From: a virus
Lineage: Duplodnaviria > Heunggongvirae > Uroviricota > Caudoviricetes
DNA: 64,000 nt
Strand: one strand, 5' to 3'
Virus record (IMG/VR): IMGVR_UViG_3300021963_000032
A model generated the notes under the pieces. The model was given only the letters and a program-made list of their open reading frames with translations, had not been told where the DNA came from and did no database searches. A program made the position numbers and the translations under genes. Of this stretch, positions 12,142 to 62,687 are shown piece by piece. Position 1 is the stretch's first letter; each line of letters opens with the position of its first letter.

Positions 12142-12215
12142 GCTTTCTTAGCTCAGTTGGTAGAGCGCTTCACTTGTAATGAAGATGTCATCGGTTCGAC
12201 TCCGGTAGAAAGCTC
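12142..12215 (+). tRNA. tRNA-Thr(TGT)
   Basis: Hand-folded cloverleaf. GCTCAGTTGGTAGAGC D-arm, anticodon loop CTTGTAA, GGTTCGACTCC T-arm. Confidence 0.7.
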
Positions 12216-12249
12216 AGAACAAATGTTCTTTGACATATTGGCTTTAAAT

Positions 12250-12321
12250 TTTCCCCTCGTCTAATCGGCAGGACGTCTGGTTTTGGGCCAGAAGATCGAG
12301 GTTCGAACCCTTGGGGGAAAA
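12250..12321 (+). tRNA. tRNA-Gln(TTG)
   Basis: Acceptor TTTCCCC/GGGGAAA, anticodon loop TTTTGGG, T-loop TTCGAAC. Confidence 0.65.
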
Positions 12322-12328
12322 CAATAAT

Positions 12329-12412
12329 GGAAGTTTAATTAAGCTGGCGCTTAACCTAGTCTTGAAAACTAGTGGTACCGAAAGGTATGGGGATCGATAC
12401 CTCAGGCTTCCT
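12329..12412 (+). tRNA. tRNA-Ser(TGA), type II
   Basis: Acceptor GGAAGTT/GGCTTCC, anticodon loop CTTGAAA, long variable arm. Confidence 0.55.
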
Positions 12413-12539
12413 CTAAATCAATACAGAGTTGAATGATACGAGCCTCCAAAGTTCGAAAGGAGTCATGGTTTGATTGAAGCGAGCAACTGTGCGCTATACA
12501 AAAAGTGTTTGCATTCGGCAAATACTACACAGTTGACAA

Positions 12540-12612
12540 CTAGGTGTGGGAAAGTTGGTAATCCGCGTGGTTTGGGACCACGAGACCGCAGGTTCGAGCC
12601 CTGCCACTTAGA
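12540..12612 (+). tRNA. tRNA-Pro(TGG)
   Basis: Anticodon stem CGTGG/CCACG, loop TTTGGGA, T-arm GCAGGTTCGAGCCCTGC. Confidence 0.65.
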
Positions 12613-12681
12613 CTATTTTTTAATCACTAAAACCCCAGAAATTATGGAAAGTGACAAGAGCGACAAGAGTCGCAAACAGCC

Positions 12682-12755
12682 GATCTCGTAGCTCAGTTGG
12701 CTAGAGCACCTCACTTTTAATGAGGGAGTCGTGGGTTCGAGCCCCACCGGGATCA
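12682..12755 (+). tRNA. tRNA-Lys(TTT)
   Basis: Acceptor GATCTCG/CGGGATC, anticodon loop CTTTTAA. Confidence 0.7.
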
Positions 12756-12764
12756 CAAACAAAT

Positions 12765-12837
12765 GCTCCTTTAGCTCAGTTGGTAGAGCGCTGCCCTTAC
12801 ATGGCAGATGTCGCAAGTTCGAGCCTTGCAGGGAGTA
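12765..12837 (+). tRNA. tRNA-Val(TAC)
   Basis: Anticodon stem CTGCC/GGCAG, loop CTTACAT. Confidence 0.65.
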
Positions 12838-12847
12838 CAAATAATAT

Positions 12848-12931
12848 GCCGTAGCGCTGAAGTTGGAGAGTCGGGGCAGACTGTAAATCTGTTGTCGTAA
12901 GGCTGAGTAGGTTCGAATCCTACCTGCGGCA
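12848..12931 (+). tRNA. tRNA-Tyr(GTA), long variable arm
   Basis: Acceptor GCCGTAG/CTGCGGC, anticodon loop CTGTAAA, T-arm GTAGGTTCGAATCCTAC. Confidence 0.65.
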
Positions 12932-12936
12932 CAATT

Positions 12937-13008
12937 GGACAAGTAGCTCAGGGGTAGAGCAAGCGACTGTTAATCGCTGGGTCGGAGGTTCGATCCCTCC
13001 CTTGTCCG
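12937..13008 (+). tRNA. tRNA-Asn(GTT)
   Basis: Acceptor GGACAAG/CTTGTCC, anticodon loop CTGTTAA. Confidence 0.7.
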
Positions 13009-13166
13009 CAATGATATAATGTTGGGTTTCCTGGTAGTAACGGTATTAACCATGGTAAGTAAGCTACAAGATTCTAGTAATAAGCACCAGATGGATTCCG
13101 TGCGACTAAAGTATCAATAGTTTTAAGGGTGGCTCTAGTTCTATAAAAACGTAATTGCCTCCACCA

Positions 13167-13240
13167 GCGCTTATAGCTCAATTGGTTAGAGCACCCGCCT
13201 GATACGCGGAAGGTTATTGGTTCGATTCCAGTTAAGCGCA
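13167..13240 (+). tRNA. tRNA-Ile(GAT)
   Basis: Acceptor GCGCTTA/TAAGCGC, anticodon loop CTGATAC. Confidence 0.7.
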
Positions 13241-13298
13241 CAAAAAGAGGAATAACTAGTGTGGGTGCCTCAACTGCTGCAGCAGTACCACACTCAAT

Positions 13299-13384
13299 GG
13301 AGAGTAAACCTTGATGGCGATAGGGCTTGCCTGCTAAGCAATGTGTACCCGTAAGGGTATTTGGTTCGATTCCAATGCTCTCCG
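13299..13384 (+). tRNA. Probable type II tRNA, tentatively Ser(GCT)
   Basis: Acceptor GGAGAGT/GCTCTCC, T-arm TTGGTTCGATTCCAA, candidate anticodon loop CTGCTAA. The D-arm is atypical. Confidence 0.4.
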
Positions 13385-13389
13385 CAGCA

Positions 13390-13460
13390 TGCCGTAGGTC
13401 CTGGGTGGACGAGGTGGGCTCATATCCTGCTTTGGATTGGTTCGAACCCAATATACGGTA
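13390..13460 (+). tRNA. tRNA-Met/Ile2 family (CAT), copy 1
   Basis: Anticodon loop CTCATAT, T-arm ATTGGTTCGAACCCAAT. The acceptor pairing is slightly irregular. Confidence 0.5.
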
Positions 13461-13470
13461 CAACAAAGGT

Positions 13471-13635
13471 ATGATGAATATGAAAAAAGTAATAACAGGA
13501 AGTTTCGAATCATCGAGAGATGTACTTCGAGGAAAGGCTCCATCGCCCAAAGGACGATTGGACTGGCGTGGTCAGGCCGTACAAGTTTACAACAAGTTCG
13601 CTAAGAAGTTGACTAAACGTAAGTCAGCGTTGTGA
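13471..13635 (+). CDS. Small basic protein (54 aa) embedded in the tRNA array
   Basis: ATG preceded by AAAGG. The product is MMNMKKVITGSFESSRDVLRGKAPSPKGRLDWRGQAVQVYNKFAKKLTKRKSAL. A strong terminator follows immediately. Confidence 0.35.
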   Translation: MMNMKKVITGSFESSRDVLRGKAPSPKGRLDWRGQAVQVYNKFAKKLTKRKSAL

Positions 13636-13640
13636 ATTGA

Positions 13641-13670
13641 CCCTCCCCACTTACGGAGTGGGGTTTTTTT
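13641..13670 (+). terminator. Rho-independent terminator
   Basis: CCCTCCCCACttacgGAGTGGGG followed by TTTTTTT. Confidence 0.65.
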
Positions 13671-13674
13671 AAAT

Positions 13675-13748
13675 GGTGGTTGTAGCTCAATCGGAAGAGC
13701 GCCAGATTGTGATTCTGGAGGTAGTGGGATCGAAACCCACCATTCACC
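13675..13748 (+). tRNA. tRNA-His(GTG) with encoded G-1
   Basis: Anticodon stem CCAGA/TCTGG, loop TTGTGAT. An extra 5' G pairs with the C discriminator. Confidence 0.6.
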
Positions 13749-13754
13749 CAATAT

Positions 13755-13840
13755 GCCTCGGTGGTGAAATTGGTAAACACGCTGGATTTAAGCTCCAGTG
13801 GGCAGTAATGTCCTTGCGGGTTCGAGCCCCGCCTGAGGTA
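13755..13840 (+). tRNA. tRNA-Leu(TAA), type II
   Basis: Anticodon stem CTGGA/TCCAG, loop TTTAAGC, long variable arm, T-arm GCGGGTTCGAGCCCCGC. Confidence 0.65.
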
Positions 13841-13989
13841 CTAAAGATGATACAAAGCGTAGAATGGTAAGCGTGGAGAGACGTGGCGCAAGGGTACACA
13901 CTAAGGATAAGCAATCAGTGCTCAACTCTCTAATGGTGTGTGAAGCCACTGAGGCAAGATTCCTGATAAAGCCATTTATCATCTTTTTT

Positions 13990-14061
13990 GCCCACATAGT
14001 TCAATGGATAGAACGTCCGGCTACGAACCGGGAGATAGGAGTTCGAATCTCTTTGAGGGTA
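13990..14061 (+). tRNA. tRNA-Arg(ACG)
   Basis: D-arm GTTCAATGGATAGAAC, anticodon stem TCCGG/CCGGG, loop CTACGAA. Confidence 0.6.
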
Positions 14062-14066
14062 CAAAT

Positions 14067-14139
14067 GCCCCTATAGTTCAACTGAATAGAACATCCCCCT
14101 TCTAAGGGGAAGATTGGAGTTTGACTCTCTGTGGGGGTA
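14067..14139 (+). tRNA. tRNA-Arg(TCT)
   Basis: Anticodon stem TCCCC/GGGGA, loop CTTCTAA. The T-loop TTTGACT is atypical. Confidence 0.5.
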
Positions 14140-14176
14140 CGATCCGATGTGTGATCCGAGCTAGGTCGGATAATTT

Positions 14177-14249
14177 ACTCCAGTAGCTCAGTTGGTAGAG
14201 CACCGGATTCCAAATCCGGGTGTCGGAGGTTCGAGTCCTTCCTGGTGTG
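14177..14249 (+). tRNA. tRNA-Trp(CCA)
   Basis: Anticodon stem CCGGA/TCCGG, loop TTCCAAA, T-arm GGAGGTTCGAGTCCTTC. Confidence 0.65.
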
Positions 14250-14317
14250 CATAAGACGGGAGGCGAGTGTTGAGGGTACAACCGTTAGGATACCTCAGCC
14301 AAGTCCTCCCCGAAGAA

Positions 14318-14390
14318 GGACAGGTAGCTCAGTCGGTAGAGCACGGCGCTGAAGACGCTGGTGTCGGGGGTTCGAATCCCTCTCTGTCCA
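14318..14390 (+). tRNA. tRNA-Phe(GAA)
   Basis: Acceptor GGACAGG/TCTGTCC, anticodon loop CTGAAGA. Confidence 0.7.
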
Positions 14391-14395
14391 CAAAT

Positions 14396-14465
14396 GCTCA
14401 GGTTGATCTTGGAGGTCGGTAGGTCTGCAAAACTTACAGAGTTGGTTCGATTCCAACCTTGAGCT
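14396..14465 (+). tRNA. tRNA-Cys(GCA), compact 70 nt
   Basis: Acceptor GCTCAGG/CTTGAGC, anticodon stem TAGGT/ACTTA, loop CTGCAAA, short D-arm. Confidence 0.55.
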
Positions 14466-14509
14466 CAAAAATAATTGTTCATAACTTTGTAATTATTTTG
14501 ATATAACTG

Positions 14510-14546
14510 TTGCAAACACCACAACAATGGAGTATCTTTAGGTATA
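14510..14546 (+). promoter_or_regulatory. Conserved phage promoter motif (TTGCA...TATCTTTAGGTATA) driving the tRNA sub-cluster
   Basis: CTGTTGCAAACACC...AGTATCTTTAGGTATAAG, preceded by the GTTCATAACTTT upstream element. Confidence 0.55.
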
Positions 14547-14591
14547 AGAAAGAGCAAAGGAGTTCATTGACGTAGTGGTAAACAAACAAAC

Positions 14592-14679
14592 AGTCAGGTG
14601 ATAGTAATTGGTAACTGCGGTGGTGCGTTAAGAGCGCTTAATATCCATCGGATTACAGGTTCGAGTCCTGTCCTGACTA
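14592..14679 (+). tRNA. Non-canonical tRNA-like element, 88 nt, anticodon unresolved (possibly Leu-like type II)
   Basis: Perfect acceptor AGTCAGG/CCTGACT and canonical T-arm ACAGGTTCGAGTCCTGT. The internal region (GGTGG...21 nt...CCATC) does not fold into a standard anticodon arm. Confidence 0.4.
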
Positions 14680-14699
14680 TAAAAAAGTTAACAAAAGTG

Positions 14700-14730
14700 T
14701 TGACTTATCGAAACAAAAGGAGTATATTTA
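14700..14730 (+). promoter_or_regulatory. Promoter variant (TTGAC...TATATTTA) with duplicated leader GTTCATTGACATAGTGGTAAACAAACAAAC
   Basis: Near-duplicate of the 14510-14591 promoter-leader unit, placed upstream of the second tRNA sub-cluster. Confidence 0.5.
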
Positions 14731-14765
14731 TAAAAGTTCATTGACATAGTGGTAAACAAACAAAC

Positions 14766-14847
14766 GCGCGAGTGGTGGAATTGGTAGACACGCCGGATTT
14801 AGGATCCGGTGCCGAAGGGTTTGAGGGTTCGAGTCCCTCCTTGCGTA
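14766..14847 (+). tRNA. tRNA-Leu(TAG), type II
   Basis: Anticodon stem CCGGA/TCCGG, loop TTTAGGA, long variable arm, T-arm GAGGGTTCGAGTCCCTC. Confidence 0.65.
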
Positions 14848-14943
14848 CAAAAAGATCAACTAGTCACTGTAATCAATCAGTGGGCGTCAGTAAGTATTCT
14901 GAGCGACGTTTAAATCCTGACAGCAATGTTGATTTTTTATTTT

Positions 14944-15017
14944 GCAGGCATAGCTCAATTGGCTAGAGCACTAGCCTTCCAAGCTGGGGGTTGTGGGTTC
15001 GAGTCCCACTGCCTGCT
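14944..15017 (+). tRNA. tRNA-Gly(TCC), with 3' CCA encoded
   Basis: Acceptor GCAGGCA/TGCCTGC, anticodon loop CTTCCAA, T-arm GTGGGTTCGAGTCCCAC followed by TCCA. Confidence 0.7.
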
Positions 15018-15022
15018 CCAAT

Positions 15023-15096
15023 GGGGGATTAGCTCAGCTGGCTAGAGCACTGCACTTGCACTGCAGGGGTCAACGGTTCGAATCCGTTATCCTCCA
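15023..15096 (+). tRNA. tRNA-Ala(TGC)
   Basis: Anticodon stem CTGCA/TGCAG, loop CTTGCAC, T-arm AACGGTTCGAATCCGTT. Confidence 0.7.
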
Positions 15097-15101
15097 CAAT
15101 T

Positions 15102-15173
15102 GGTCCATTGGTGTAGTGGCTAACATACCACCCTGTCACGGTGGTGCCGCGAGTTCGATTCTCGCATGGACCG
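15102..15173 (+). tRNA. tRNA-Asp(GTC)
   Basis: Acceptor GGTCCAT/ATGGACC, anticodon loop CTGTCAC. Confidence 0.7.
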
Positions 15174-15183
15174 CAAACAATAC

Positions 15184-15255
15184 GCTGCCATCGTCTAACG
15201 GTTAGGACCTATGGTTTTCATCCATAAAATCGGAGTTCGATTCTCCGTGGCAGTA
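15184..15255 (+). tRNA. tRNA-Glu(TTC)
   Basis: TCGTCTAACGGTTAGGAC D-arm, anticodon stem TATGG/CCATA, loop TTTTCAT. Confidence 0.7.
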
Positions 15256-15350
15256 CAAAGATCGGAGTAATTAACCGATCCTAACAAGTAAGTATGCATA
15301 TAGCTTAAAGAGATTTGACGTCACTAATTTCTGCATGCTTCTCTTGATTA

Positions 15351-15426
15351 ACTACTTATGGTGTAAATTGGTTTGCACACGGGTCACACGGCCCGAGGGT
15401 TATAGGTTCGAGTCCTATGGGTAGTT
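15351..15426 (+). tRNA. tRNA-like with atypical anticodon loop, identity unresolved
   Basis: Acceptor ACTACTT/GGGTAGT and T-arm ATAGGTTCGAGTCCTAT are canonical. The anticodon stem CGGG/CCCG encloses a 6- or 8-nt loop (T)CACACG(G). Confidence 0.35.
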
Positions 15427-15432
15427 CAACAT

Positions 15433-15505
15433 AGCGGGGTGGAGAAGATGGTATTCTCGGCGGGCTCATAACCCGAGGACGCTGGTTCGAGTCCGGCCCC
15501 CGCTA
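15433..15505 (+). tRNA. tRNA-Met/Ile2 family (CAT), copy 2
   Basis: Acceptor AGCGGGG/CCCCGCT, D-stem GAGA/TCTC, anticodon loop CTCATAA. Confidence 0.6.
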
Positions 15506-15601
15506 CAAATACGTAAACCTAAGTACCCATACCGCTCACGGTGGGCTAAGTAAGATACAATTTCGTACTGCGGGAAGTAGAATGCTTAGGAGCGTGTTTA
15601 C

Positions 15602-15684
15602 GGCTAGGAGTGTAAAAGGCGTCGGTGCTGATTCCATCTGTTGAAGATGGTTGCTCATTGTAGGTTCGAATCCTATCCTAGCTG
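15602..15684 (+). tRNA. Putative type II tRNA-like element, anticodon unresolved
   Basis: Acceptor GGCTAGG/CCTAGCT and T-arm GTAGGTTCGAATCCTAT. The internal hairpin CCATCtgttgaaGATGG could be the anticodon arm (TTG) or the variable arm. Confidence 0.3.
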
Positions 15685-15689
15685 CAGAG

Positions 15690-15763
15690 GGTCCTTTAGC
15701 TCAGTTGGTTAGAGCAGCTCGCTCATAACGAGAAGGTCCCAGGTTCGAATCCTGGATGGACCA
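15690..15763 (+). tRNA. tRNA-Met/Ile2 family (CAT), copy 3
   Basis: GCTCAGTTGGTTAGAGC D-arm, anticodon loop CTCATAA, T-arm CCAGGTTCGAATCCTGG. Confidence 0.6.
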
Positions 15764-15772
15764 CACAAAAAG

Positions 15773-23255: not shown

Positions 23256-23256
23256 A

Positions 23257-24966: not shown

Positions 24967-25112
24967 TTAGGCATGAGTATCGGAGAACAAACACTAAGCA
25001 CAATGATGCCTTTGTTACAAGATGTAGCAACAAAGCATGGGTTGAGATTATACATCGCACGTGAGTTTAAGATGGCTCGATTTCTACTAGCAAATGTTTA
25101 CTTAAATTTTAT

Positions 25113-25826: not shown

Positions 25827-25854
25827 TTCGGATATAAAGTCGTATCTTTAGATC

Positions 25855-26868: not shown

Positions 26869-26880
26869 TTTAACAAGCTG

Positions 26881-26912
26881 TTGCAAAATCGTTTCATTGG
26901 TAGTATCTTTAC
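26881..26912 (+). promoter_or_regulatory. Conserved phage promoter (TTGCAAAATCG...TAGTATCTTTAC)
   Basis: Motif ends 4 nt upstream of the ATG at 26916. Confidence 0.55.
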
Positions 26913-26915
26913 TGT

Positions 26916-27365: not shown

Positions 27366-27368
27366 GTT

Positions 27369-27755: not shown

Positions 27756-27772
27756 AAAGTTTTGCACAACTG

Positions 27773-27810
27773 TTGCATCAACGGAAAATAGGTACGACCT
27801 TTAGATATAA
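27773..27810 (+). promoter_or_regulatory. Conserved phage promoter (TTGCA-N22-CTTTAGATATAA)
   Basis: Family motif upstream of the ATG at 27828. Confidence 0.5.
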
Positions 27811-27827
27811 TTAAAAACACACAAGTT

Positions 27828-28577
27828 ATGCCAAAGATTTACAAAGTAGGAGGTTGCGTTAGGGATACGTTTCTAGGTATTGATTCGAAGGATATTGATT
27901 TTACCTTTGTGTTAGATAACATTGACAGATCCGTAGAGGAAGGGTTTCAGATAATGACTGAGTACCTAGAACATAAGGGATTCACAATCTTCTTATCGAC
28001 TCCACAGATGTTTACAATTAGAGCTAAGTTCCCAAGTACAGACGGACCTTATGCTAGATACTGCGGTATGGTTGCAGACTTTGTGTTAGCGAGAAAGGAA
28101 GTTGGATATGTTCCAGGAACGAGACAACCGATTCTTGAGTTAGGTACGTTAGAAGATGACCTTATTAGAAGAGACTTCACTCTGAATGCACTAGCTGTAG
28201 ATGAGGACGGAAATCTAATTGATCTTTTCAATGGCGTTAACGATCTAAAGGTAGGCTTACTCAGAACTCCATTAGATCCAAAAGTCACAATGATGGATGA
28301 TCCATTGAGGTTTTTAAGAGCTTTGAGGTTTAGTATCACTAAAGACTTTACGATTGCTCTTGAGATATTCGATGCTATACAAAACCAACCTGAGATTCTA
28401 GAGAAGCTAGAAAAAGTAGTCTCTGCAGAGAGAATTAGAGAAGAGGTTTTCAAAATGATGAATGCTGACACTGTAAAGACTTTGGAGTTGTTTAGAATCG
28501 TAGAAGAGATGGTTCCAGGATTCACTAAGCTAGTATTCAGCAAAGGTCTATGGTTGAAACCAACATTTGAACAATAA
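27828..28577 (+). CDS. cca: Class II nucleotidyltransferase: CCA-adding enzyme / poly(A) polymerase head domain
   Basis: VGGCVRDTFLGIDSKDIDF and RRDFTLNAL signatures. Confidence 0.65.
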   Translation: MPKIYKVGGCVRDTFLGIDSKDIDFTFVLDNIDRSVEEGFQIMTEYLEHKGFTIFLSTPQMFTIRAKFPSTDGPYARYCGMVADFVLARKEVGYVPGTRQPILELGTLEDDLIRRDFTLNALAVDEDGNLIDLFNGVNDLKVGLLRTPLDPKVTMMDDPLRFLRALRFSITKDFTIALEIFDAIQNQPEILEKLEKVVSAERIREEVFKMMNADTVKTLELFRIVEEMVPGFTKLVFSKGLWLKPTFEQ

Positions 28578-28595
28578 ATAAATACACAATAAGAA

Positions 28596-29735
28596 ATGGA
28601 AAATAACAACAGCGTATGTTACGTAGGACTCGTAACAGAAGTAAAAGCCATCGAAGGAGCTGACAACATTGAGTTAGCAGTAGTTGGTGGATGGAATGCA
28701 ATCACTAAGAAAGGTGAATATGCAGTAGGTGATAAAGTTGTAGTAGCTACAACAGATGCAGTCATTCCAGTTGGGTTATCTGACTTAATGCAAGTGACTA
28801 ACTACTTGCGTAAAGGACAACGAGTGAGAACCGTTAAGTTGCGAGGAGTATACTCTGAGTGCTTATTAATCCCATTTAAGTATCTAGCTCCTAAGTCATT
28901 GGAAAAGAATGTTAAGGATGGTGATGACATGATGGAGATCTTAGGAGTAACCAAGTACGAGCCACCGGTAAGACAAGTTCAGTTATCATCTGGAAGAAAG
29001 GTCAAATACAAAGACAATCCAAACTTCCATGTCTACTACAAGTTCCCTAACTTGAAGAATGTAGCTGGGATGTTTACTGAGGAAGATGTAGTTGAGATCA
29101 CTAGAAAGATTCATGGTACCAATGCTCGCTATGGTATTGTCAAAAAGACTAGCTTGTCTTTCATGGACAAAGTTAAAAAGTTCTTCCGCTTAGGTGGAGA
29201 GTGGATTGATTATGAGTATGTGTACGGATCTCACAACGTTGAGAAAGGTTCTGACTCACAAGGATTCTACTCTACAGATGTTTGGAGAACAATTGCTGAC
29301 AAGTACCAAATCAAAGAAAAGCTTTGGACGATTGTTAAGGAAGAGTACACTCCAGAACAGTTGGGAGCAGGGATTGTAATGTATGGTGAAATCTACGGAG
29401 CAGGTATTCAGAAGAATTACGAGTACGGATTAACTGATATGGAGTTTGTCGGGTTCGACTTCTCTGAGGATGGAACATACTTTGCACCACTCACATCACA
29501 ATATGCTATCAAAAACGTGATGGGATTACCATATGTAGAGCAATTGCATTTCGGACCATGGACACAAGAAGTACAAGACAAGTATGTGTTCAATAACTTC
29601 ATCGAAGGTACTAAGGTGCCACACGAGGGAATTGTAATCAAGTACCACACTGGTCAGCGAAACAAAGTAGCTAAAGTAATCAACCCAGACTACTTGATCT
29701 ACGGAGAGAAACACAACGTAGGAGACTCACACTAA
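28596..29735 (+). CDS. ATP-dependent RNA ligase (Rnl2/Rnl5-like) with N-terminal OB-like domain
   Basis: Motif I KIHGTN, motif IV EGIVIK, motif V KVAKVINP. N-terminal VGLVTEVKAIEGADNIELAVVGGWNAI OB-like segment. Confidence 0.6.
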   Translation: MENNNSVCYVGLVTEVKAIEGADNIELAVVGGWNAITKKGEYAVGDKVVVATTDAVIPVGLSDLMQVTNYLRKGQRVRTVKLRGVYSECLLIPFKYLAPKSLEKNVKDGDDMMEILGVTKYEPPVRQVQLSSGRKVKYKDNPNFHVYYKFPNLKNVAGMFTEEDVVEITRKIHGTNARYGIVKKTSLSFMDKVKKFFRLGGEWIDYEYVYGSHNVEKGSDSQGFYSTDVWRTIADKYQIKEKLWTIVKEEYTPEQLGAGIVMYGEIYGAGIQKNYEYGLTDMEFVGFDFSEDGTYFAPLTSQYAIKNVMGLPYVEQLHFGPWTQEVQDKYVFNNFIEGTKVPHEGIVIKYHTGQRNKVAKVINPDYLIYGEKHNVGDSH

Positions 29736-32532: not shown

Positions 32533-32568
32533 TTGCATAAACGAATAGGAAGGAGTATCTTTAGGTAT
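32533..32568 (+). promoter_or_regulatory. Conserved phage promoter (TTGCA-N22-CTTTAGGTATAA)
   Basis: Family motif upstream of the ATG at 32584. Confidence 0.55.
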
Positions 32569-32583
32569 AAACAAAAGCAAGTT

Positions 32584-33441: not shown

Positions 33442-33878
33442 TAGTGTACCACAAAGACTTCTTCATCAACAGATTAGTGAAGGAGTGGCTCAACCACGAG
33501 AAGTTAGTCATCGCATGCGACTTAGATGACACAATCATTCCATACAACCTAGAGCTAACACAAAGCTGTGCAGATGTTGTTGAGTTGATACTAGATTGCC
33601 AAAAGGAAGGAATTGTATTCATTATCAATACAGCACGAGAACGATCCAAGTTGATTGATAGTGTAGGCCAAGTAGAGGATTTAGGAATCAAAGTACACTC
33701 AGTTAACGAAATGCCTCCCTATTGGACACTACCAATTGGAGTATCAGGTAAAGTGTATGCTAACATATTCTTAGACGATCGAGGTGGATTGGAATGTACC
33801 AAGCACCAATTGCGTAAAGCATTGGAGATAGTAAAACAGATAAGAGAACAACAAAAAATACAGAATGAAAGTAATTAA
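33438..33878 (+). CDS. HAD-like hydrolase
   Basis: VIACDLDDTIIP matches the DxDxT motif. Confidence 0.4.
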   Translation: MIVYHKDFFINRLVKEWLNHEKLVIACDLDDTIIPYNLELTQSCADVVELILDCQKEGIVFIINTARERSKLIDSVGQVEDLGIKVHSVNEMPPYWTLPIGVSGKVYANIFLDDRGGLECTKHQLRKALEIVKQIREQQKIQNESN

Positions 33879-34341
33879 ACCACCACATGCAATAACTGAA
33901 AGAACGTACGGACATCCAACTATCTTCCTAGCTGGAAGTATTGAGATGGGTAAAGCAGAGGATTGGCAATCACAGATGGAATGGCTATTTCGTGATAAAG
34001 ATGTAACCATATTTAATCCTCGCAGAGAGGAATGGGATTCGTCTTGGACTCAGGACATTGAGAATCCACAATTCTATCAGCAAGTGAATTGGGAGTTGAA
34101 TGCATTAGAGAAGAGTGATCTAATCTTTATGTACTTTGCACCTGGAACGCAATCACCAATATCACTACTAGAGCTTGGACTATTTGCACACACCGGTAAG
34201 TTGGTTGTATGCTGTCCGGAAGGTTTTTGGAGAAAGGGTAATGTTGATATCGTTTGTGATAGATATGGCATTCCAGTATTCTCAAATGTAGTAGCAGCTC
34301 AGGGAGAATTATACAGCAGATGGTTAGAATTATTTAAGTAA
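33865..34341 (+). CDS. Nucleoside 2-deoxyribosyltransferase-like (Rcl/YtoQ family) protein
   Basis: IFLAGSIEMG...FNPRREEWDS...LIFMYF pattern of the deoxyribosyltransferase fold. Confidence 0.45.
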   Translation: MKVIKPPHAITERTYGHPTIFLAGSIEMGKAEDWQSQMEWLFRDKDVTIFNPRREEWDSSWTQDIENPQFYQQVNWELNALEKSDLIFMYFAPGTQSPISLLELGLFAHTGKLVVCCPEGFWRKGNVDIVCDRYGIPVFSNVVAAQGELYSRWLELFK

Positions 34342-34398: not shown

Positions 34399-35910
34399 AT
34401 GAATCCATTATTTTTAACAGACGGGTACAAGACGGGACACCACAAGCAGTATCCAGAGGGAACCACATTAGTGTATTCCAACTTCACACCACGTAGCAAC
34501 AAGTATGCTCCGAAGGGTTGTGATAAAGTAGTATCATTTGGTCAGCAATTGATCATGAAACAGATCCACGAAGCCTTTGAGAAAGACTTCTTTCATCAAC
34601 CAAAGGAGCACGTGTGTGCTGAGATCAAACGTGAGTTGTCAATGTACTTAGGTACCGACTATGACGTATCTCACTTCGAGGCGTTATGGGATCTACAGTA
34701 TCTTCCAATCAAAGTGAAAGCTATTAAAGAAGGTACATTGGTTCCAATTAAAGTTCCAGTGTTAACAATCGTCAACACACATCCAGACTTCTATTGGATC
34801 ACTAACTACTTGGAAACAATCATCTCCAATATGTTATGGAAGCCAATGACCTCTGCAACAATTGCACATCAGTACAAGAAAGTACTAGAGCATTGGGCTG
34901 AGAAGACTAACCGTGATGCGATGGAGTTTGTTAATTGGCAGGGACATGACTTCTCTATGAGAGGTATGGATTCTACTGAAGCGGTTATCTCTTCGGGATT
35001 AGGTCACTTAACTTCATTCCTAGGATCTGACTCACTTCCAGCTATCTACGGAGCTAGAAAGTATTACGGTGAGACAGAGTTTGTTGCAGGATCAGTAAAT
35101 GCTACAGAGCACTCAGTAATGTGTGCAGGTACAAAGGATGACGAGGTTGGAACATTCCGTCGCTTGTTGACCGAGACTTATCCATCAGGAATCTTATCAG
35201 TAGTATCTGACACTTGGGATTTGTGGAAAGTATGTACCGAACACGTAGTTACATTAAAAGATGAGATTATGGCTCGTGACGGTAAGTTAGTTATCCGTCC
35301 TGACTCAGGTGACCCAGTAGATATTCTTTGTGGTTTAAATACTAGAAGTGAAGAATTTAAGAAAAATTGGTTGGACACTGCTACTCGAAATAATGGTGAA
35401 TATGAAGGAGTTATTGAAATACTTTGGAATGTATTCGGAGGAACTATCAATGAACAAGGTTACAAAGTACTTGACCCACACATCGGAGCAATCTACGGAG
35501 ACTCAATCACAATCGACAGAGCAAATGAAATCTGTGCTAGATTAGAAGCAAAAGGGTTTGCATCTACAAACGTAGTGCTAGGTATCGGATCATTCACATA
35601 CCAATACAACACACGTGATACATTTGGGTTTGCAATGAAAGCAACCTATGTTGAGGTGAATGGTGAAGGTAGAGAGATATTCAAAGATCCAATCACAGAT
35701 GATGGAACTAAGAAGTCTGCAACCGGATTGCTATGTGTTCAACCACTGAGTGACGGAAGCATCTACTTAATGGACAAAGTTAGTTGGGATAGTGAAGATA
35801 AGGGACTACTCGCTAGCATCTATGTTGATGGTAAGTTCCACAATGTTACTACTCTGTCAGATGTTCGTGCTAACTTGAGAACTGCTAACCTATTAGAAGA
35901 GCTAGTGTAA
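34399..35910 (+). CDS. nadV: Nicotinamide phosphoribosyltransferase homolog (NAMPT/NadV-like, or NARP1 Namat-like)
   Basis: N-terminal LFLTDGYKTGHHKQYP matches the NAMPT TDSYKxxHxxQYP signature. The 503-aa length fits the family. Confidence 0.65.
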   Translation: MNPLFLTDGYKTGHHKQYPEGTTLVYSNFTPRSNKYAPKGCDKVVSFGQQLIMKQIHEAFEKDFFHQPKEHVCAEIKRELSMYLGTDYDVSHFEALWDLQYLPIKVKAIKEGTLVPIKVPVLTIVNTHPDFYWITNYLETIISNMLWKPMTSATIAHQYKKVLEHWAEKTNRDAMEFVNWQGHDFSMRGMDSTEAVISSGLGHLTSFLGSDSLPAIYGARKYYGETEFVAGSVNATEHSVMCAGTKDDEVGTFRRLLTETYPSGILSVVSDTWDLWKVCTEHVVTLKDEIMARDGKLVIRPDSGDPVDILCGLNTRSEEFKKNWLDTATRNNGEYEGVIEILWNVFGGTINEQGYKVLDPHIGAIYGDSITIDRANEICARLEAKGFASTNVVLGIGSFTYQYNTRDTFGFAMKATYVEVNGEGREIFKDPITDDGTKKSATGLLCVQPLSDGSIYLMDKVSWDSEDKGLLASIYVDGKFHNVTTLSDVRANLRTANLLEELV

Positions 35911-42069: not shown

Positions 42070-42080
42070 GATTGAGAGAT

Positions 42081-44309
42081 ATGAATAATACACAGACACA
42101 GACTTATCAAGAATTGCTTCGCAAGGCGCTGGGCAAGAAGAACACTAACACTGCCGCGCGTAAGTTAGATGTCAAGAAGAACTATGCTAGCTTCTGGATG
42201 GATGACTTAGGAAAGGGTAACGATCGCTTTGGTCTTGGTAGTGACTTCTCTGGGAAGAGTAGTGACATCGTCAAGGCTATCAAGTTGAACTCTTACCGTA
42301 AGGCGATTGCAAACTTCGTTAAGATCCTTACTAACAAAGAGATCCCCGTGAGGTTTGCTGGTAGTGATTCTTACACAGATGGTAAGAGTGTTACTATCTC
42401 TTCTGATATTAAGGACAATAACTTTGATGTCTCTGTGGGATTGGCCTTGCACGAGGCTTCTCACATTTTGTTGACTGACTTCTCTGTCCTTCCCGCACTA
42501 CGTGATGGGAAGATTGAAGCAGCTAAAGACTTGGACGGAAGGTTGGTTAAAGACCTTTTGAACTTCATTGAAGATAGACGTATTGACCACTATGTGTTTA
42601 GTACTTCTCCTGGGTACAAAGCTTACTACCACAAGTTGTATGAGCACTACTGGAACAATGACAAGACGGTTATCAAAGGCCTTTTGTCTGCTAAGTTCAG
42701 AGATGCTAAGAAGCTTGACAGTTGGATGTTCCAGATCATCAACATGATGAATCCCGCATTTGATGCGACTGTTATGCCTCGCTTGCAGGAGATCGTTACC
42801 TTGATTGGAATACCGACTATCAGTCGTTTGAAGTCTACACAAGACGCTCTTGACATTGCCATCCAGGTTGCACAGATCATCACAGACGAGATGCGCCAAG
42901 CGATCGAAGATGCAGCTAGCCAACCGGAGCCAGAACAAGGGCCAGGTCAGCCTAGTCCGGATGCAGACGGTGAAGCAGGAGAGGATCAAGAGTCCGGCAG
43001 TGAAAGTGATGATTCAAGTGAAAGTGATGATGGAAGTGAAAGTGATGATGGAAGTGAAAGTGATGATTCAAGTGAAGAAGGTCAGGGATCTAGTGAGGGT
43101 GAAGAAGGGGAAGACGGAGACGGAGAAGCTTCTACCGGTGGTACTGATCTGACTCCAGAAGAAGAGGCTGCTATCGAGAAGGTGCTTAGAGAGCAACGTA
43201 AGTTCATGGACGGAGAGAGCGGGAAGAAGCAGGCAGGTAGAAACCTCGAAAGAAAGTTAGATAAGACTGAGAAAGAGGGAGTTACGATCGAGCAAGTAGG
43301 TGGCAAGTATACTTGTCTTAACTACGATGTTACCGGTAAGGAGTTCGTTGCCGCAGCTGATGCGAAGGATAAGATACAAGAAGCTAGAAACAATGTGTAC
43401 AAGGAAGCATACGGATCACCAGCGAAGAAGGCAGCAGAAGCAGCATTAGCTGAGCTCCGCACTACTAGTGAGTTATTAAGTAATGACTACTTCAGCAGTC
43501 CTAGTGCACGATATGCTAAGGCAATCGACAAGGGAATATTGATGGGACAGTTGCTTGGTAAGAAGCTACAGATGCGTAACGAGTCACGTGAGAGAATCGA
43601 TAACAGACTGAGAAGCGGGAAGATAGACAACAGACGTCTAGCAGCTGCAGGGTACGGAATCGAGAGCATCTTCCACCAGGTGACAATAGACAAGTACAAG
43701 AAAGCTAACCTACACATGAGCTTAGATGGCTCAGGCAGTATGGGAGGAACCAACTGGGAGAACACAGCCATGATGGCAGCAGCAATTGCTAAAGCTCTTA
43801 CCTTCACATCAAACGTGGCAATGCAGATATCAATCAGGGTAACAACTAACGATAGCGGAACCCTTCCTGCTAACTACTTCATCTACGATTCTCGCAAGAA
43901 TACACTAAGAGAGCTACAGGTGATACTAAAGGCATTCAATCCTAACGGGATGACACCAGAAGGTTTGTGCTTCGAGAGTATGCTTAAGAAGAACCAACTA
44001 GTGAAGTCTAGCGCAGACATGGATAGCTACTTCGTTAACCTTTCCGACGGAGGACCTGGAGGAGTAGGACAGTACGGAGGATCAGTTGCAACGGAGCATA
44101 CAAGAGCACAAGTTACTAAGATGCGTAACGAGCTAGGTATGGGAGTATTAAGCTACTTCATGACACAGTACGGAGGTACAGACTTCGCTAGCAGTGGTAG
44201 CGGTAGAGCTTTCCAGGCCATGTACGGAAAGGCAGCTACCAACATTGCACCGGACAACGTAATGGAGATTGCTAAGACACTTAACAATTTATTTATGAAC
44301 AAGGGATAA
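42081..44309 (+). CDS. CobT-like von Willebrand factor A domain protein with an acidic Ser/Asp/Glu repeat
   Basis: MIDAS-like HMSLDGSGSMGG. Internal (SESDDG/SESDDS)x4 and EGEEGEDGDGEA acidic tract. Partner CobS-like ATPase lies at 48707. Confidence 0.5.
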   Translation: MNNTQTQTYQELLRKALGKKNTNTAARKLDVKKNYASFWMDDLGKGNDRFGLGSDFSGKSSDIVKAIKLNSYRKAIANFVKILTNKEIPVRFAGSDSYTDGKSVTISSDIKDNNFDVSVGLALHEASHILLTDFSVLPALRDGKIEAAKDLDGRLVKDLLNFIEDRRIDHYVFSTSPGYKAYYHKLYEHYWNNDKTVIKGLLSAKFRDAKKLDSWMFQIINMMNPAFDATVMPRLQEIVTLIGIPTISRLKSTQDALDIAIQVAQIITDEMRQAIEDAASQPEPEQGPGQPSPDADGEAGEDQESGSESDDSSESDDGSESDDGSESDDSSEEGQGSSEGEEGEDGDGEASTGGTDLTPEEEAAIEKVLREQRKFMDGESGKKQAGRNLERKLDKTEKEGVTIEQVGGKYTCLNYDVTGKEFVAAADAKDKIQEARNNVYKEAYGSPAKKAAEAALAELRTTSELLSNDYFSSPSARYAKAIDKGILMGQLLGKKLQMRNESRERIDNRLRSGKIDNRRLAAAGYGIESIFHQVTIDKYKKANLHMSLDGSGSMGGTNWENTAMMAAAIAKALTFTSNVAMQISIRVTTNDSGTLPANYFIYDSRKNTLRELQVILKAFNPNGMTPEGLCFESMLKKNQLVKSSADMDSYFVNLSDGGPGGVGQYGGSVATEHTRAQVTKMRNELGMGVLSYFMTQYGGTDFASSGSGRAFQAMYGKAATNIAPDNVMEIAKTLNNLFMNKG

Positions 44310-48706: not shown

Positions 48707-49924
48707 ATGATTATTAAAAACACAAAAACACAAGTTATGAGTAAATTTCCAATGATTGCCGAAGTAAAGATGGCCCCTGGCAAAGGCGGTAAGATGGTTG
48801 TTAAAGCCTTCGATTCAGTTTCCGGAGAGGAAGTGAAAGGTATTGTTTATGTAACGCTTCAAGGAGCTTACAAAGCTGGTATGAACCTTGCTAAGATGAG
48901 TGAAGATTCTTCTTTCACTCGAGTTGATTCTACTGTCTCTGTTGAGATGTTAGAGCAGATTATTAGTGGTGCTGAGGTTTCAGTTCCGGAGGTTGCTCCT
49001 GCTACTAATGACGTTATGTCTTTCTTAAAGACTTGTGTTGAGAAACGTCCAGAGACACTCTACATTGAGGACCTTAACTGGAAGTTTATGTGTCGTACTG
49101 CGATGCGTGGAGGTAATATGTTGATGACTGGTCCTACCGGATGTGGTAAGTCTCAGACAGCCATTGCGGTTGCTAAGGCTCTTGGACGTGAGTTGTTCTA
49201 TGTTAACTTAGGTGCTACTCAAGATCCTCGAGGAACATTGATTGGTAACACTCACTTCTCTAAAGAGGTTGGTACTTTCTTTAACGAGTCTGCTTTCGTA
49301 AAAGCCATTCAGACTCCTAACACAGTGATCTTGCTTGATGAGATTTCTCGTGCGCATCCTGAGGCTTGGAATATCTTGATGACGGTTCTCGATCCAGGAC
49401 AGAGATACTTGAGATTGGATGAGGCTGTTGGAGCTCCTACAGTACACGTTGCAGAGGGAGTAGCGTTCATCGGAACTGCTAACATTGGTAGTGAGTATAC
49501 TGCCACAAGAGTAATGGACCGAGCGTTGTTAGACCGATTCACTATCGCTGAGATTCCTTACTTAACTGTAGCTCAGGAGTCTAAGTTGCTGACTCAGTTA
49601 CACCCAGGATTGTCTAAGAAAGTTTGTCAGAACATCGCTGAGATTGCTGGTCAGACTCGTACAGAGGTTATGACAGATAGTCCACGAATCTCTAGTGCGA
49701 TTTCGACTCGTGCAGCGATTGAGATGGCCGGGTTAATGTCTGACGGATTCGCAATCGAAGAGACAGCTCAAGTAAGTATCTACCCACTGTACTCTAACGA
49801 CGGAGGTATGCAGTCTGAGAGAACTTATGTGAAGCAGTTGGTTCAGAAGTACATCAACGATGGAACTGCTGATAACTTGACGGGTGCTGAAAGTGCTGAG
49901 GTTGAATCAAACTTACCTTTCTAA
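48707..49924 (+). CDS. CobS-like / MoxR-family AAA+ ATPase
   Basis: Walker A LMTGPTGCGKSQ. Walker B ILLDEISRAHPEAWNILMTVLD. Confidence 0.55.
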   Translation: MIIKNTKTQVMSKFPMIAEVKMAPGKGGKMVVKAFDSVSGEEVKGIVYVTLQGAYKAGMNLAKMSEDSSFTRVDSTVSVEMLEQIISGAEVSVPEVAPATNDVMSFLKTCVEKRPETLYIEDLNWKFMCRTAMRGGNMLMTGPTGCGKSQTAIAVAKALGRELFYVNLGATQDPRGTLIGNTHFSKEVGTFFNESAFVKAIQTPNTVILLDEISRAHPEAWNILMTVLDPGQRYLRLDEAVGAPTVHVAEGVAFIGTANIGSEYTATRVMDRALLDRFTIAEIPYLTVAQESKLLTQLHPGLSKKVCQNIAEIAGQTRTEVMTDSPRISSAISTRAAIEMAGLMSDGFAIEETAQVSIYPLYSNDGGMQSERTYVKQLVQKYINDGTADNLTGAESAEVESNLPF

Positions 49925-61872: not shown

Positions 61873-62072
61873 TCATGATGACAATTTCATTTTACATCCA
61901 ACCCGAAGATGCTCTCGTACTTTGCAGCTACTTAGAGTCCTTTGACGAGGAGGAAGAGAATCCAGTACTGTACATTAGTAATCAACCTACAAGCCCTCAA
62001 GATTTACTTATTACAATTAAGTTTGAGCAATATAACGAGTTAATTGACCTCGAACTTGTTGAATGGCTTTGA
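61866..62072 (+). CDS. hypothetical acidic protein
   Basis: ORF with an internal start. Confidence 0.3.
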   Translation, partial: TLIMMTISFYIQPEDALVLCSYLESFDEEEENPVLYISNQPTSPQDLLITIKFEQYNELIDLELVEWL

Positions 62073-62105
62073 TCTTTGGAAAACTTTTCCTATATTTAAT
62101 TCAAA

Positions 62106-62485
62106 GGGGCTGCTTTGGCTTTGACAAGCAGACGCGTTCTTTGAGATGATGCAAGCAGGGTTAGATGGAAACCCTTAAACACCTATCACAACATAAATGC
62201 AAACGTAGAACTTTCTACATGGACCTTCGAAGATGTTATGGCATTCGTAGGTGGTGAATTAGCAGTAGCTGCATAGTCGCTCCCGTATCACTCATGGGAC
62301 ATTAAATAGAAGTGAACGAAAGAGTACATCTCGCTGACTCATTAAATAAGAGTGGGGAACATTGGTCCGATTGACGATGTTGAAGAACTGATCGGTATTT
62401 TGTCTAGTTAGAAAACGAGACTAAGCTTGTGAACGAGTCTGTTTGAATATCTGTTTGGACGAGGGTTCGACCCCCTCCAGCTCCA
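62106..62485 (+). ncRNA. ssrA: tmRNA (SsrA)
   Basis: 5' GGGGCTG...GACAAGCAGACGCG and 3' GGACGAGGGTTCGACCCCCTCCAGCTCCA form a tRNA-like acceptor and T-arm. The internal tag ORF ...GCATTCGTAGGTGGTGAATTAGCAGTAGCTGCATAG encodes ...AFVGGELAVAA* ending in the typical LAxAA. Confidence 0.6.
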
Positions 62486-62521
62486 CTATCTCTCGTGTCG
62501 AAAGGCACAACTTGTGTGTTA

Positions 62522-62555
62522 AGGAATGGCTAAGGAAACTTGGCCATTCTTTTTT
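62522..62555 (+). terminator. Rho-independent terminator
   Basis: AATGGCTAAGgaaaCTTGGCCATT followed by CTTTTTT. Confidence 0.6.
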
Positions 62556-62687
62556 GCTGAGATATTTATATGCAGAATAGGTTATGTTATAAATTTATTT
62601 TAAATTATTTTCACAAAACTGTTGACTTTCTGGATTATTTTCCTGATATTATTAAAATAAATTATTAATTAATAACTTTTAAATTTT

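Follow-up and report, generated by a model that had tools for sequence, protein, structure and literature searches.

Genes for transfer-messenger RNA (tmRNA) have been catalogued in phages for about two decades, and the reports consulted list them without an analysis of their tags. They are present in approximately 2.3% of phage genomes (PMC4131195, PMC7162821, PMC9004378). In Escherichia coli the five bases upstream of the resume codon set the frame in which the tag is read, and among them A86, at position -4, is nearly invariant and acts like a ruler (PMC2481249); in Bacteroides the native tag, GETNYALAA, has nine residues and acts as a strong degron (bioRxiv 10.1101/2025.03.18.644028); and the 27-residue tag of Mycoplasma, which is read by Lon, gives a precedent for a long tag that switches protease specificity (PMC8403727). 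In this study we analysed a stretch of 64,000 nucleotides of viral DNA (Caudoviricetes, IMG/VR record IMGVR_UViG_3300021963_000032; the whole stretch is referred to as the window), which carries a tmRNA gene with an unusually long tag. It is very probable that the gene encodes, in one piece, a working tmRNA of a large lytic-type phage and that its tag has 25 residues; we also propose, as a tentative possibility, that the core of this tag serves as an additional element by which a protease, an adaptor or some factor of the phage recognises the tag.

The original prediction, made from the sequence alone, had placed a phage-encoded tmRNA at 62106-62485 and had suggested ARAGORN and the Rfam family RF00023 as checks. 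Both checks were positive, and the window is phage DNA. The tmRNA call of ARAGORN covers 62106-62486 and gives ANVELSTWTFEDVMAFVGGELAVAA, followed by a stop codon, as the tag, and RF00023 matched 62106-62488 on the plus strand over its full length (model positions 1-374) with 98.6 bits and E = 2.7e-37, the gathering score being 47; these calls are far beyond chance. The 5' GGGGCUG, the T-arm and the acceptor end CAGCUCC-A are all as they had been read in advance, and the third acceptor pair, expected to be the G-U that serves as alanine identity element, is formed by G62108 and U62482. A tRNA-like domain is present, with an acceptor stem of 7 bp made from both ends of the gene and with a T-arm that has a GUUCGA-type loop. 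A permuted two-piece tmRNA (RF04321) was considered and rejected, since the gene order is standard, ARAGORN used the label 'tmRNA' rather than 'tmRNA*', and RF00023 was the top family in Rfam. The 3' CCA is not encoded in the gene (it ends in ...CUCCA, followed by CUA) and must therefore be added post-transcriptionally; tRNA-like genes commonly lack an encoded CCA, which does not disqualify the gene.

The resume codon, which had been called unclear because of the long open frame, could be located. The bases U and A at positions -5 and -4 and the alignment to the Rfam consensus set it to GCA 62199-62201: the stretch AUAAAUGCAAACG aligned to the consensus round the resume codon with high posterior probability, and ARAGORN chose the same GCA at 62199. 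In 27 of the 27 aligned members of the family described below there is an A at -4, despite the fact that their tags start differently (AN, A, D, AE, GEEK, DNK, ANE). From the consensus alignment together with the A at -4 it follows that the resume codon is assignable with confidence and that 25 residues is the true predicted length of the tag, not an artefact of an open frame. The claim of an unusually long tag holds good: 25 codons are closed by TAG 62274-62276, the frame is kept in relatives, and this length is atypical for a tmRNA. The Bacteroidetes-type ending that had been proposed stood only in part, since the C-terminus is hydrophobic and alanine-rich (...ELAVAA) and keeps the A-x-A-A end, whereas the tag as a whole is not of the Bacteroidota type, whose example is the nine-residue GETNYALAA. 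Instead of about 9 residues with a GE start and a YA(L/I)AA end, the tag of the window has 25 residues, an AN start and an LAVAA end.

Degenerate back-translations of the tag recovered 20 IMG/VR contigs with near-identical tags, but as evidence for conservation this search is circular. Since it presupposes the peptide, a tag-independent search was carried out with the scaffold motif UUAGAAAA-N4-A-N-UAAGCUUGUGAA, which belongs to the 3' strand of helix 2 and lies about 200 nt off the tag. The motif led to 54 viral contigs; 3 were cut by contig ends and 51 could be assessed, and in 41 of the 51 there is a tag of 23-26 residues built on one shared core. The plan of these tags is a variable start, then (V/E)-E-(L/K)-S-(T/S)-(W/M/F)-T-(F/W)-E-D-(A/V)-(M/L)-(A/S)-F-(V/I/A), a brief variable segment and, as a rule, (Y/L/F/M)-A-(V/M/I)-A-A. 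The other 10 contigs carry short canonical tags (2), other long tags (4, three of the ...ELV type and one other) or sub-threshold elements (4). We defined the long-tag family by the scaffold motif and a tag of 23-26 residues with the core [ST]-[WMF]-T-[FWIV]-[EG]-[DN]-[AV]-[ML]-[AS]-[FW]; the window belongs to it, with the motif at 62408-62433 and the core at 62205-62246. In five relatives ARAGORN called short tags (among them GEAMAIAA, VDYAVAA and AGLAVAA), which are mis-set resume codons, the long frame being intact there.

Several tmRNAs outside this definition, and some variants within it, were recorded beside the family. Sister tmRNAs on nearly the same scaffold carry other long tags (L041 5117-5477 on the minus strand, L048 and L024; L021 1121-1518 on the plus strand), with Rfam scores of 73.9 bits for L041 and 70.1 bits for L021. 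Their tags are ANAYNVEDIMSIPTSITRSAVVEEIELMELV, of 31 residues and without the Ala-Ala end, and GESFVNADGKVFYMDTTAVSYDEPVLMAA, of 29 residues; a V-E-D-I-M-S-I stretch in ANAYNVEDIMSIPTSITRSAVVEEIELMELV resembles the F-E-D-A-M-A-F of the core. An element present in L032, L038, L039 and L052 in nearly identical copies (L038 3409-3850, plus strand) combines the scaffold motif with a frame that resembles a tag (...GTREDLVAALQNNLLKVEELQFA) and with an abnormal T-arm (GACACGUUGGGCAGUGCAACGUC); L038, the copy that was scanned, is below the Rfam threshold, the element was not counted as a tmRNA, and it may be a degenerate or divergent variant. Three members of 450-477 nt (L042 1164-1615 and L045 125-601, both on the minus strand, and L058) have their tag frame about 65-70 nt later than usual, at position 157-165 instead of about 94, which points to extra sequence inserted after the tRNA-like domain and before the tag.

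Selection on the structure of the RNA was assessed by pair counting and by RNAalifold on a MAFFT alignment of the 27 members. This alignment is not structure-aware, and counting on it under-counts those helices that shift their register (helix 2a, pseudoknot 2 (PK2) and stem 2 of pseudoknot 1 (PK1)); PK1 stem 2 was checked in each sequence individually. In the tested helices 90.4% of the alignment cells were paired, compared with 36-49% when the partner columns were slid, 21 pairs showed compensatory double changes, and the observed covariation was reached by no shuffle. Pairing amounted to 98.5-100% in the T-arm, the acceptor stem, PK1 stem 1 and the distal helix 2. The G3-U pair was invariant in 27 of 27 sequences, while positions 4-7 of the acceptor stem covaried (GC/CG/GU, AU/CG/GC/UA, UA/CG/AU and GC/UA). 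The T-stem and acceptor helices were 100% paired with compensatory changes, which extended to all 5 T-stem pairs; the distal helix 2 was likewise 100% paired, with double changes in 2 pairs, and PK1 stem 1 (98.5% paired) had compensatory changes in all 5 of its pairs. For PK1 stem 2 at least 4 complementary solutions exist in the family (GAUGG/CUAUC, GGUUCU/GGAAUC, AUACU/GGUAU and AGGUA/UAUCU). The complementarity of PK2 was read in the window, and alternative complementary versions were found in relatives; in the stretch of PK2 to PK4 the Rfam posterior was only 1-3, and PK3-PK4 were highly variable.

Within the RNA family no block is conserved better than the core of the tag. Its majority fraction was 0.85, with 14 of 42 columns invariant, the corresponding fractions being 0.79 for the T-arm together with the acceptor and 0.34 for the region of PK3-4; in the helix-2 3' region 16 of 51 columns were invariant. 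Even where the scaffold of a member shares only about 55% identity with that of the window, the core retained 79-90% identity. Changes within the core were distributed over codon positions 1, 2 and 3 as 12, 10 and 25, the proportion of synonymous differences (pS) was 0.53, which is near saturation, and that of nonsynonymous differences (pN) was 0.16, giving pN/pS of about 0.3. The replacements are conservative yet require several nucleotide changes: tryptophan, methionine and phenylalanine are exchanged as TGG, ATG and TTC, and leucine is written as CTT or TTA. Such swaps are conservative for a protein and not for an RNA, which argues for selection at the level of the peptide, and by this pattern of substitution the tag core is under purifying selection as a peptide.

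It might be supposed that translation resumes further downstream and yields a short canonical tag, approximately GGELAVAA, the upstream codons being conserved for the RNA only, such as for a helix-5-like hairpin or for the binding of a protein. ARAGORN itself called short internal tags in the five relatives mentioned, and a hairpin within the frame, suggested by the Rfam alignment, could be formed in 84.7% of the alignment cells of the family. Its covariation, however, was not above that of shuffles, and codons outside the hairpin are equally conserved; for lack of covariation the hairpin was rejected as the sole cause of the core conservation, to which it may contribute without explaining the whole pattern. 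Furthermore, the A at -4 precedes the long frame in 27 of 27 members and the resume codon fits the Rfam consensus with high posterior probability, whereas the internal candidate GGU 62253 has a C at -4. The variation falls on third positions, the replacements are conservative multi-nucleotide ones, and the long frame is intact in all five miscalled relatives. Resumption within the frame is thus quite improbable in our estimation.

If the peptide is selected, the frame should be translated, and this speaks against the RNA being a decoy or a remnant. As a decoy the RNA would titrate the SmpB of the host or compete with the host tmRNA and so shut down host trans-translation, as was proposed for the molecule of mycobacteriophage DS6A that consists of the tRNA-like domain only (PMC4131195). 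It would agree with this that no SmpB gene was found in the window. Nevertheless a decoy needs no intact resume context, PK1 or stop codon, nor a peptide under purifying selection, and we regard it as very improbable.

The core appears to be confined to virus-like DNA, within the limits of pattern searches. Its pattern was searched in 185,579 species genomes (one per bacterial or archaeal species) and gave 31 matches, 30 of them inside ordinary protein open reading frames (ORFs). The sole tmRNA among the 31 (L071 1702-2065, tag GEEKSTFTFEDAMAFVGGAEVVA) is on contig CAZPVG010000130.1, which has 4503 bp and 12 tRNAs and is binned into a metagenome-assembled genome of an 'uncultured bacterium' in the species-representative set; the contig is probably a phage fragment that contaminates this bin. 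The tag had no match in GenBank phages. When the frame, as a 43-codon in-frame stretch, was compared with 5.8 billion protein clusters, none shared three 5-residue words with it, a search that weak resemblance would escape, and no evidence was obtained there that the core mimics a cellular protein.

The origin of the tag can be approached through its relatives. Long-tag, short-tag and ...ELV tmRNAs are near-identical until the resume codon and diverge exactly there, and the short-tag relatives on the same scaffold have GVNNYALAA and GEYNYAIAA. Long tags of the GEEK type share both ends with the short ones, namely GGC GAA at the beginning and TAC GCn nTn GCT GCC stop at the end. Because the scaffold is shared, and because these ends are shared too, the simplest reading would be an internal expansion of about 15 codons in an ancestral tag GE.NYA(L/V)AA of a captured Bacteroidota tmRNA.

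Taken together, a working tmRNA whose tag core is a recognition element is, as one blended judgement, the explanation that we consider likely. Transcription would start from a Bacteroidota-type promoter of the gene's own and stop at its own terminator, the ends would be trimmed, and the CCA would be added, probably by a CCA-adding enzyme of the phage. The alanyl-tRNA synthetase of the host would charge the tmRNA with alanine by means of the G3-U70 pair, and with SmpB, presumably that of the host, and EF-Tu the tmRNA would enter ribosomes that have come to a halt at the 3' end of a broken mRNA; such mRNAs should be plentiful in infection and under attack by RNA-targeting defence. Such trans-translation activity, i.e. 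charging by the synthetase and binding of SmpB and EF-Tu, is predicted from these features of the gene and from what is established for tmRNAs in general. Translation would then move to GCA 62199, append ANVELSTWTFEDVMAFVGGELAVAA and be released at UAG. The ...LAVAA end (L/Y-A-V-A-A in the family) would be a C-terminal degron that resembles the canonical one; a Bacteroidota host is expected to have ClpXP. The acidic and aromatic core of about 14 residues (VELS-T-[W/M/F]-T-F-E-D-A-M-A-F) could be a second recognition element.

A number of observations weigh against this explanation. The whole case rests on sequence; pN/pS was calculated from 14 codons and 20 unique sequences, and 3 of the 27 aligned members were found via the tag itself. 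The hairpin within the frame is formable in 85% of cells, so constraint at the RNA level may add to the nucleotide conservation. PK2 is moderately supported, with 57-75% pairing on the sequence-based alignment, and PK3 and PK4 are too variable to resolve. The genome scan was blind to cellular tags beyond the pattern T-F-E-D-[AV]-M-[AS]-F. Two members end in ...VHA and ...VVA and sister tmRNAs on the same scaffold in ...ELV, and a ClpXP-type degron end is thus not universal. SmpB was not found in the 64-kb window by tblastn, with an E. coli SmpB sequence as the query, or by Pfam on about 50 of about 100 ORFs. Finally, Pfam and PHROGs, applied to about 50 ORFs of the window and to the neighbour families, revealed no candidate binding partner such as a protease or an adaptor, only RNA-processing proteins.

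There is a further possibility, in which rescue is kept and the core routes the tagged proteins to a fate other than standard ssrA degradation: capture by a phage factor, a different protease, sequestration, or shielding from ClpXP against saturation of the protease. Conservation of the core exceeds that of the C-terminal end and of the tRNA-like domain, and the core is absent from the scanned cellular ssrA genes. Members and sisters without terminal AA (...VHA, ...VVA, ...ELMELV), together with the tag of phage Calle, which ends in ...AVGV, indicate that phage tags in this group seem not to be tied to the canonical degron. On the other side, most members, the window included, keep the hydrophobic ...A-V-A-A end, no phage partner is present in the window or beside related tmRNAs, and no protein resembling the core was found; a repurposing of this kind is unlikely in our view. 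Formulated as a tagging system of the phages' own, where the core would dock a partner outside the ssrA pathway (a phage factor, another protease or a chaperone) and the phage would choose the fate of proteins from stalled ribosomes, the idea is still rather doubtful. If it were true, the sister long tags without the AA end (...ELMELV, and ...AVGV of Calle) would be further versions of a phage tagging strategy.

The elements of the tmRNA gene on which the proposed working tmRNA with a recognition-element core is built, and the features of the window that may be connected with it, are collected in Table 1.

Table 1. Positions of the tmRNA gene, of its parts and of associated features in the 64,000-nucleotide window
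Feature	Position	Strand	Remarks
Putative Bacteroidota-type promoter	62068..62098	+	-33 TTTG 62068-62071, 19-nt spacer, -7 box TATATTTA 62091-62098
One-piece tmRNA (ssrA)	62106..62485	+	Mature 5' G to discriminator A; ARAGORN, RF00023, family covariation
Acceptor stem, 5' strand GGGGCUG	62106..62112	+	G62108-U62482 is the G3-U70 alanine identity pair
Helix 2, distal segment GCAAGC	62151..62156	+	Partner GCUUGU 62425-62430
Pseudoknot 1	62157..62187	+	Stem 1 62157-62161/62171-62175; stem 2 GAUGG 62164-62168/CUAUC 62183-62187
Frame-setting upstream sequence UAAAU	62194..62198	+	U62194 at -5 and A62195 at -4, like E. coli U85 and A86
Tag reading frame ANVELSTWTFEDVMAFVGGELAVAA	62199..62276	+	GCA resume codon 62199-62201, 25 codons, TAG 62274-62276
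Conserved tag core VELSTWTFEDVMAF	62205..62246	+	14 codons; best-conserved block of the RNA family
Possible helix-5-like hairpin in the frame (ACCUUCGAA / UUCGUAGGU)	62223..62252	+	Suggested by the Rfam alignment; core codons 7-9/14-16
Pseudoknot 2	62281..62315	+	Stem 1 UCCCG 62281-62285/UGGGA 62295-62299; stem 2 UCACU 62288-62292/AGUGA 62311-62315; hand-derived
Helix 2, 3' strand and internal loop UUAGAAAACGAGACUAAGCUUGUGAA	62408..62433	+	Conserved family scaffold signature
T-arm GAGGG-UUCGACC-CCCUC; acceptor 3' strand CAGCUCC; discriminator A	62461-62477; 62478-62484; 62485	+	Rfam alignment
Intrinsic terminator	62521..62555	+	14-bp hairpin, GAAA loop, then U6 tract
23 tRNA genes	12142..15764	+	ARAGORN and Rfam
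RNA-end-repair island	21221-29735	+	Kinase/NT5C-like phosphatase fusion 21221-22456, metallophosphoesterase 25113-25826, PNKP-type phosphatase 26916-27365, nucleotidyltransferase, RNA ligase
CCA-adding-type nucleotidyltransferase	27828..28577	+	Pfam PolyA_pol head domain, E 5e-20
RNA ligase	28596..29735	+	Pfam RNA_ligase and PHA02142 OB-fold

With its putative promoter and terminator the tmRNA gene looks like an independent transcription unit. The arrangement TTTG-N19-TATATTTA fits what we take to be the -33/-7 promoter consensus of Bacteroidota, and there are 7 nt between the end of the -7 box and the mature 5' end of the tmRNA. The pattern TTTG-N19-TAnnTTTR had 5 matches in the window compared with 0.72 expected, only one of them before the tmRNA, and many family tmRNAs, and neighbouring genes as well, have a TATATTT(A/G) box in front of them, which for the tmRNAs lies at a distance of 14-36 nt. 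The fold of 62487-62562 had -28.9 kcal/mol (z = -5.45), and 0 of 200 shuffles were as stable. A scan for sigma-70 promoters and terminators was uninformative for a Bacteroidota host and missed the terminator; it was replaced by the motif comparison and the fold.

The gene could also be regarded as an inert remnant, either a piece of a host ssrA taken along by imprecise excision or a duplicate of an attachment site, given that tmRNA genes are frequent integration sites and that ssrA fragments are known in phages (PMC9004378, PMC11590407). However, it is a full-length gene with every core element and with a promoter and terminator of its own, it belongs to a diverse family held intact by compensatory changes, and its tag was not found in cellular genomes. 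Moreover, the same phage region occurs in independent samples, and no integrase was among the approximately 50 ORFs scanned. An inert remnant is therefore extremely improbable.

The phage that carries the gene has nearly all of its sizeable ORFs and every annotated gene on the plus strand of the 64-kb window. Its gene content includes an endolysin cassette, a CobS/CobT-like pair, thymidylate synthase, a DNA ligase, UvdE and enzymes of the nicotinamide adenine dinucleotide (NAD) salvage type. There is no close deposited relative among 50,697 GenBank phage records: megablast of 14 kb against the GenBank phages gave no match, and the matches of the RNA ligase in tblastn were all below 30% identity. 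The same gene order recurs in independent Logan, JGI and ENA assemblies; SRR7130817, SRR7130819 and JGI 3300021962 are among the samples in which the phage is present. An ORF at 17665-19650 (plus strand, 661 residues) ends in a C-terminal CHU_C sorting domain of the type IX secretion system (E 5e-15), which implies that its product would be exported by this system of the host. The GenBank phage matches to the tmRNA itself are only the 3' ssrA ends in crAss-like, Chryseobacterium, Cellulophaga and Maribacter phages. On the basis of the CHU_C domain, the -33/-7 promoter, these matches and the Bacteroidota-type tags on the same scaffold, the host phylum is most likely Bacteroidota.

The surroundings of the tmRNA are rich in functions related to RNA. 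Many related contigs have a tRNA array that adjoins their tmRNA. In the window the CCA is encoded neither in the tmRNA gene nor in any of the 23 tRNA genes, and the nucleotidyltransferase at 27828-28577 likely supplies it to the tmRNA and to the tRNAs. Homologues of the RNA ligase are found on approximately 15-kb stretches round the tmRNA in 9 related contigs, and the genes that recur by related tmRNAs are those for an RNase H-like protein, a cyclic-phosphate-processing receiver domain, an RNA ligase and a metallophosphoesterase. The island at 21221-29735 resembles a tRNA-repair counter-defence set. The neighbourhood fits a translation-maintenance module in which the tmRNA would complement the tRNA array and the repair genes, as had been envisaged at the outset. 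The substrate of a tmRNA is the ribosome at the 3' end of a truncated mRNA, and it has no direct action on ribosomes stalled by shortage of a tRNA.

A few further observations were made in these regions. At 17076-17179 on the plus strand Rfam gave a tRNA of 104 nt (36.3 bits) that ARAGORN did not report in its normal mode; with introns allowed ARAGORN gave a doubtful tRNA-Cys(aca) with a 27-nt intron. As the 23-tRNA array contains no tRNA-Ser, this could be an unusual class II tRNA, or a tRNA bearing an insert. In a related contig (L013 8432-8507, plus strand) ARAGORN reported a tRNA with a four-base anticodon (ccta) within a 20-tRNA array that adjoins a family tmRNA; the call may be mistaken, or the tRNA may be of the frameshift-suppressor type. 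Possible genes of NAD+ salvage are located on the plus strand at 22563-23003, 32533-33441, 33865-34341 and 34399-35910; the set comprises NAMPT/NAPRTase-family, phosphoribosyl pyrophosphate (PRPP)-synthetase-like, cytidylyltransferase-fold (NMNAT-like) and nucleoside 2-deoxyribosyltransferase-like members, and it may counter NAD-depleting defences. A CobT-like protein of 745 residues and a CobS/MoxR-like AAA+ ATPase are encoded at 42072-44309 and 48707-49924 (plus strand), a pair often met in large aquatic phages.

The biology of this tmRNA is largely expected, and what is unexpected is its conserved core, found in virus-like DNA. In the family defined here, which is apparently common among uncultivated phages of Bacteroidota, the length of the tag has more than doubled. 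The added segment, whose peptide is under purifying selection, is conserved better than any other part of the RNA and has no counterpart in the scanned cellular ssrA genes. The core of about 14 residues is a defined peptide that could be used in a reporter fusion, a deletion or as a bait (VELSTWTFEDAMAFVGADYAVAA), and it offers a handle on the role of phage tmRNA. Should the core prove to act in recognition, it could lead to an adaptor or a protease specificity of Bacteroidota not described before, and it could supply a new tag for orthogonal degradation; the Lon tag of Mesoplasma has given synthetic biology such a tag. If, on the contrary, the core had no effect, the well-supported case of a phage tmRNA would remain, set among tRNAs, a CCA-adding enzyme and RNA-repair genes in an island for translation maintenance.

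Compared with the one-piece bacterial SsrA (RF00023), which works with SmpB, the gene of the window shares the G3-U70 pair, helix 2, PK1, the A at -4, the GCA resume codon, the ...AVAA end and a stop codon just before PK2. It differs in that it is encoded by a phage, that its tag has 25 residues compared with about 9-14 in well-studied bacteria, that the middle of the tag and not the tRNA-like domain is the most conserved part of the phage family, and that the CCA is not encoded. In relation to the GETNYALAA tag of Bacteroidota, the scaffold is near-identical until the resume codon in the short-tag relatives and the hydrophobic A-x-A-A end is kept, while there are about 15 extra codons with the core S-T-W-T-F-E-D-A-M-A-F-V-G, the N-terminus is AN instead of GE, and an L instead of a Y precedes AVAA. 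The Lon tag of Mycoplasma and Mesoplasma, with 27 residues, is likewise unusually long and rich in hydrophobic residues (PMC8403727), but it is cellular whereas the present one is phage-borne; no sequence similarity was noted between them, a statement that has no sequence comparison behind it.

Among phages, mycobacteriophages of the Bxz1 group, Bacillus phage G, the huge phages, the pelagiphages and Melnitz likewise have a tmRNA in a large genome rich in tRNA and translation genes; the tmRNAs of Melnitz and of the pelagiphages are permuted and riboswitch-linked, unlike the one-piece tmRNA of the window. A full-text literature search found no description of a conserved phage-specific tag, nor do the reports on Bxz1, G, huge phages, pelagiphages and Melnitz contain one. 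The phages of the same host phylum, namely the Cellulophaga phages Calle and phi38:1, Chryseobacterium phage MA9V-3, Maribacter phage Panino and crAss-like phages, match the tmRNA of the window only in the 3' T-arm and acceptor, and the Bacteroidota phage tags AQIEANMEAVNAILNLEVAVGV, GNVIDINKYVAKLEVAA, GKVMNVSFAPTVRQFA, GNFYVTDYTRIAA and GNNFVTDYTQLAVA are unrelated to it in sequence. MA9V-3 and Panino (RF04321) and the crAss-like cr125_1 and cr10_1 (tmRNA* in ARAGORN) have permuted genes with tags of 13-17 residues. In the GenBank records of phi38:1 and phi40:1 no feature is annotated at approximately 26803-26835, where the 3' T-arm/acceptor is. Calle, which is in culture, has a one-piece tmRNA (RF00023, 86.6 bits), 20 tRNAs and a 22-residue tag that ends in ...AVGV; the gene of Calle_1 (L096 372-733) is at approximately 42950-43311 of MT732432.1, and its tag AQIEANMEAVNAILNLEVAVGV is without the canonical end. 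A phosphoribosyltransferase adjoins the tmRNA in the window and in Calle and was considered as a shared neighbour, but only the PRPP-binding motif is common to the two and the adjacency is probably a coincidence. Long idiosyncratic tags may be a wider feature of the tmRNAs of Bacteroidota phages; nowhere is this clearer than in the present family, where one peptide is common to many diverged members.

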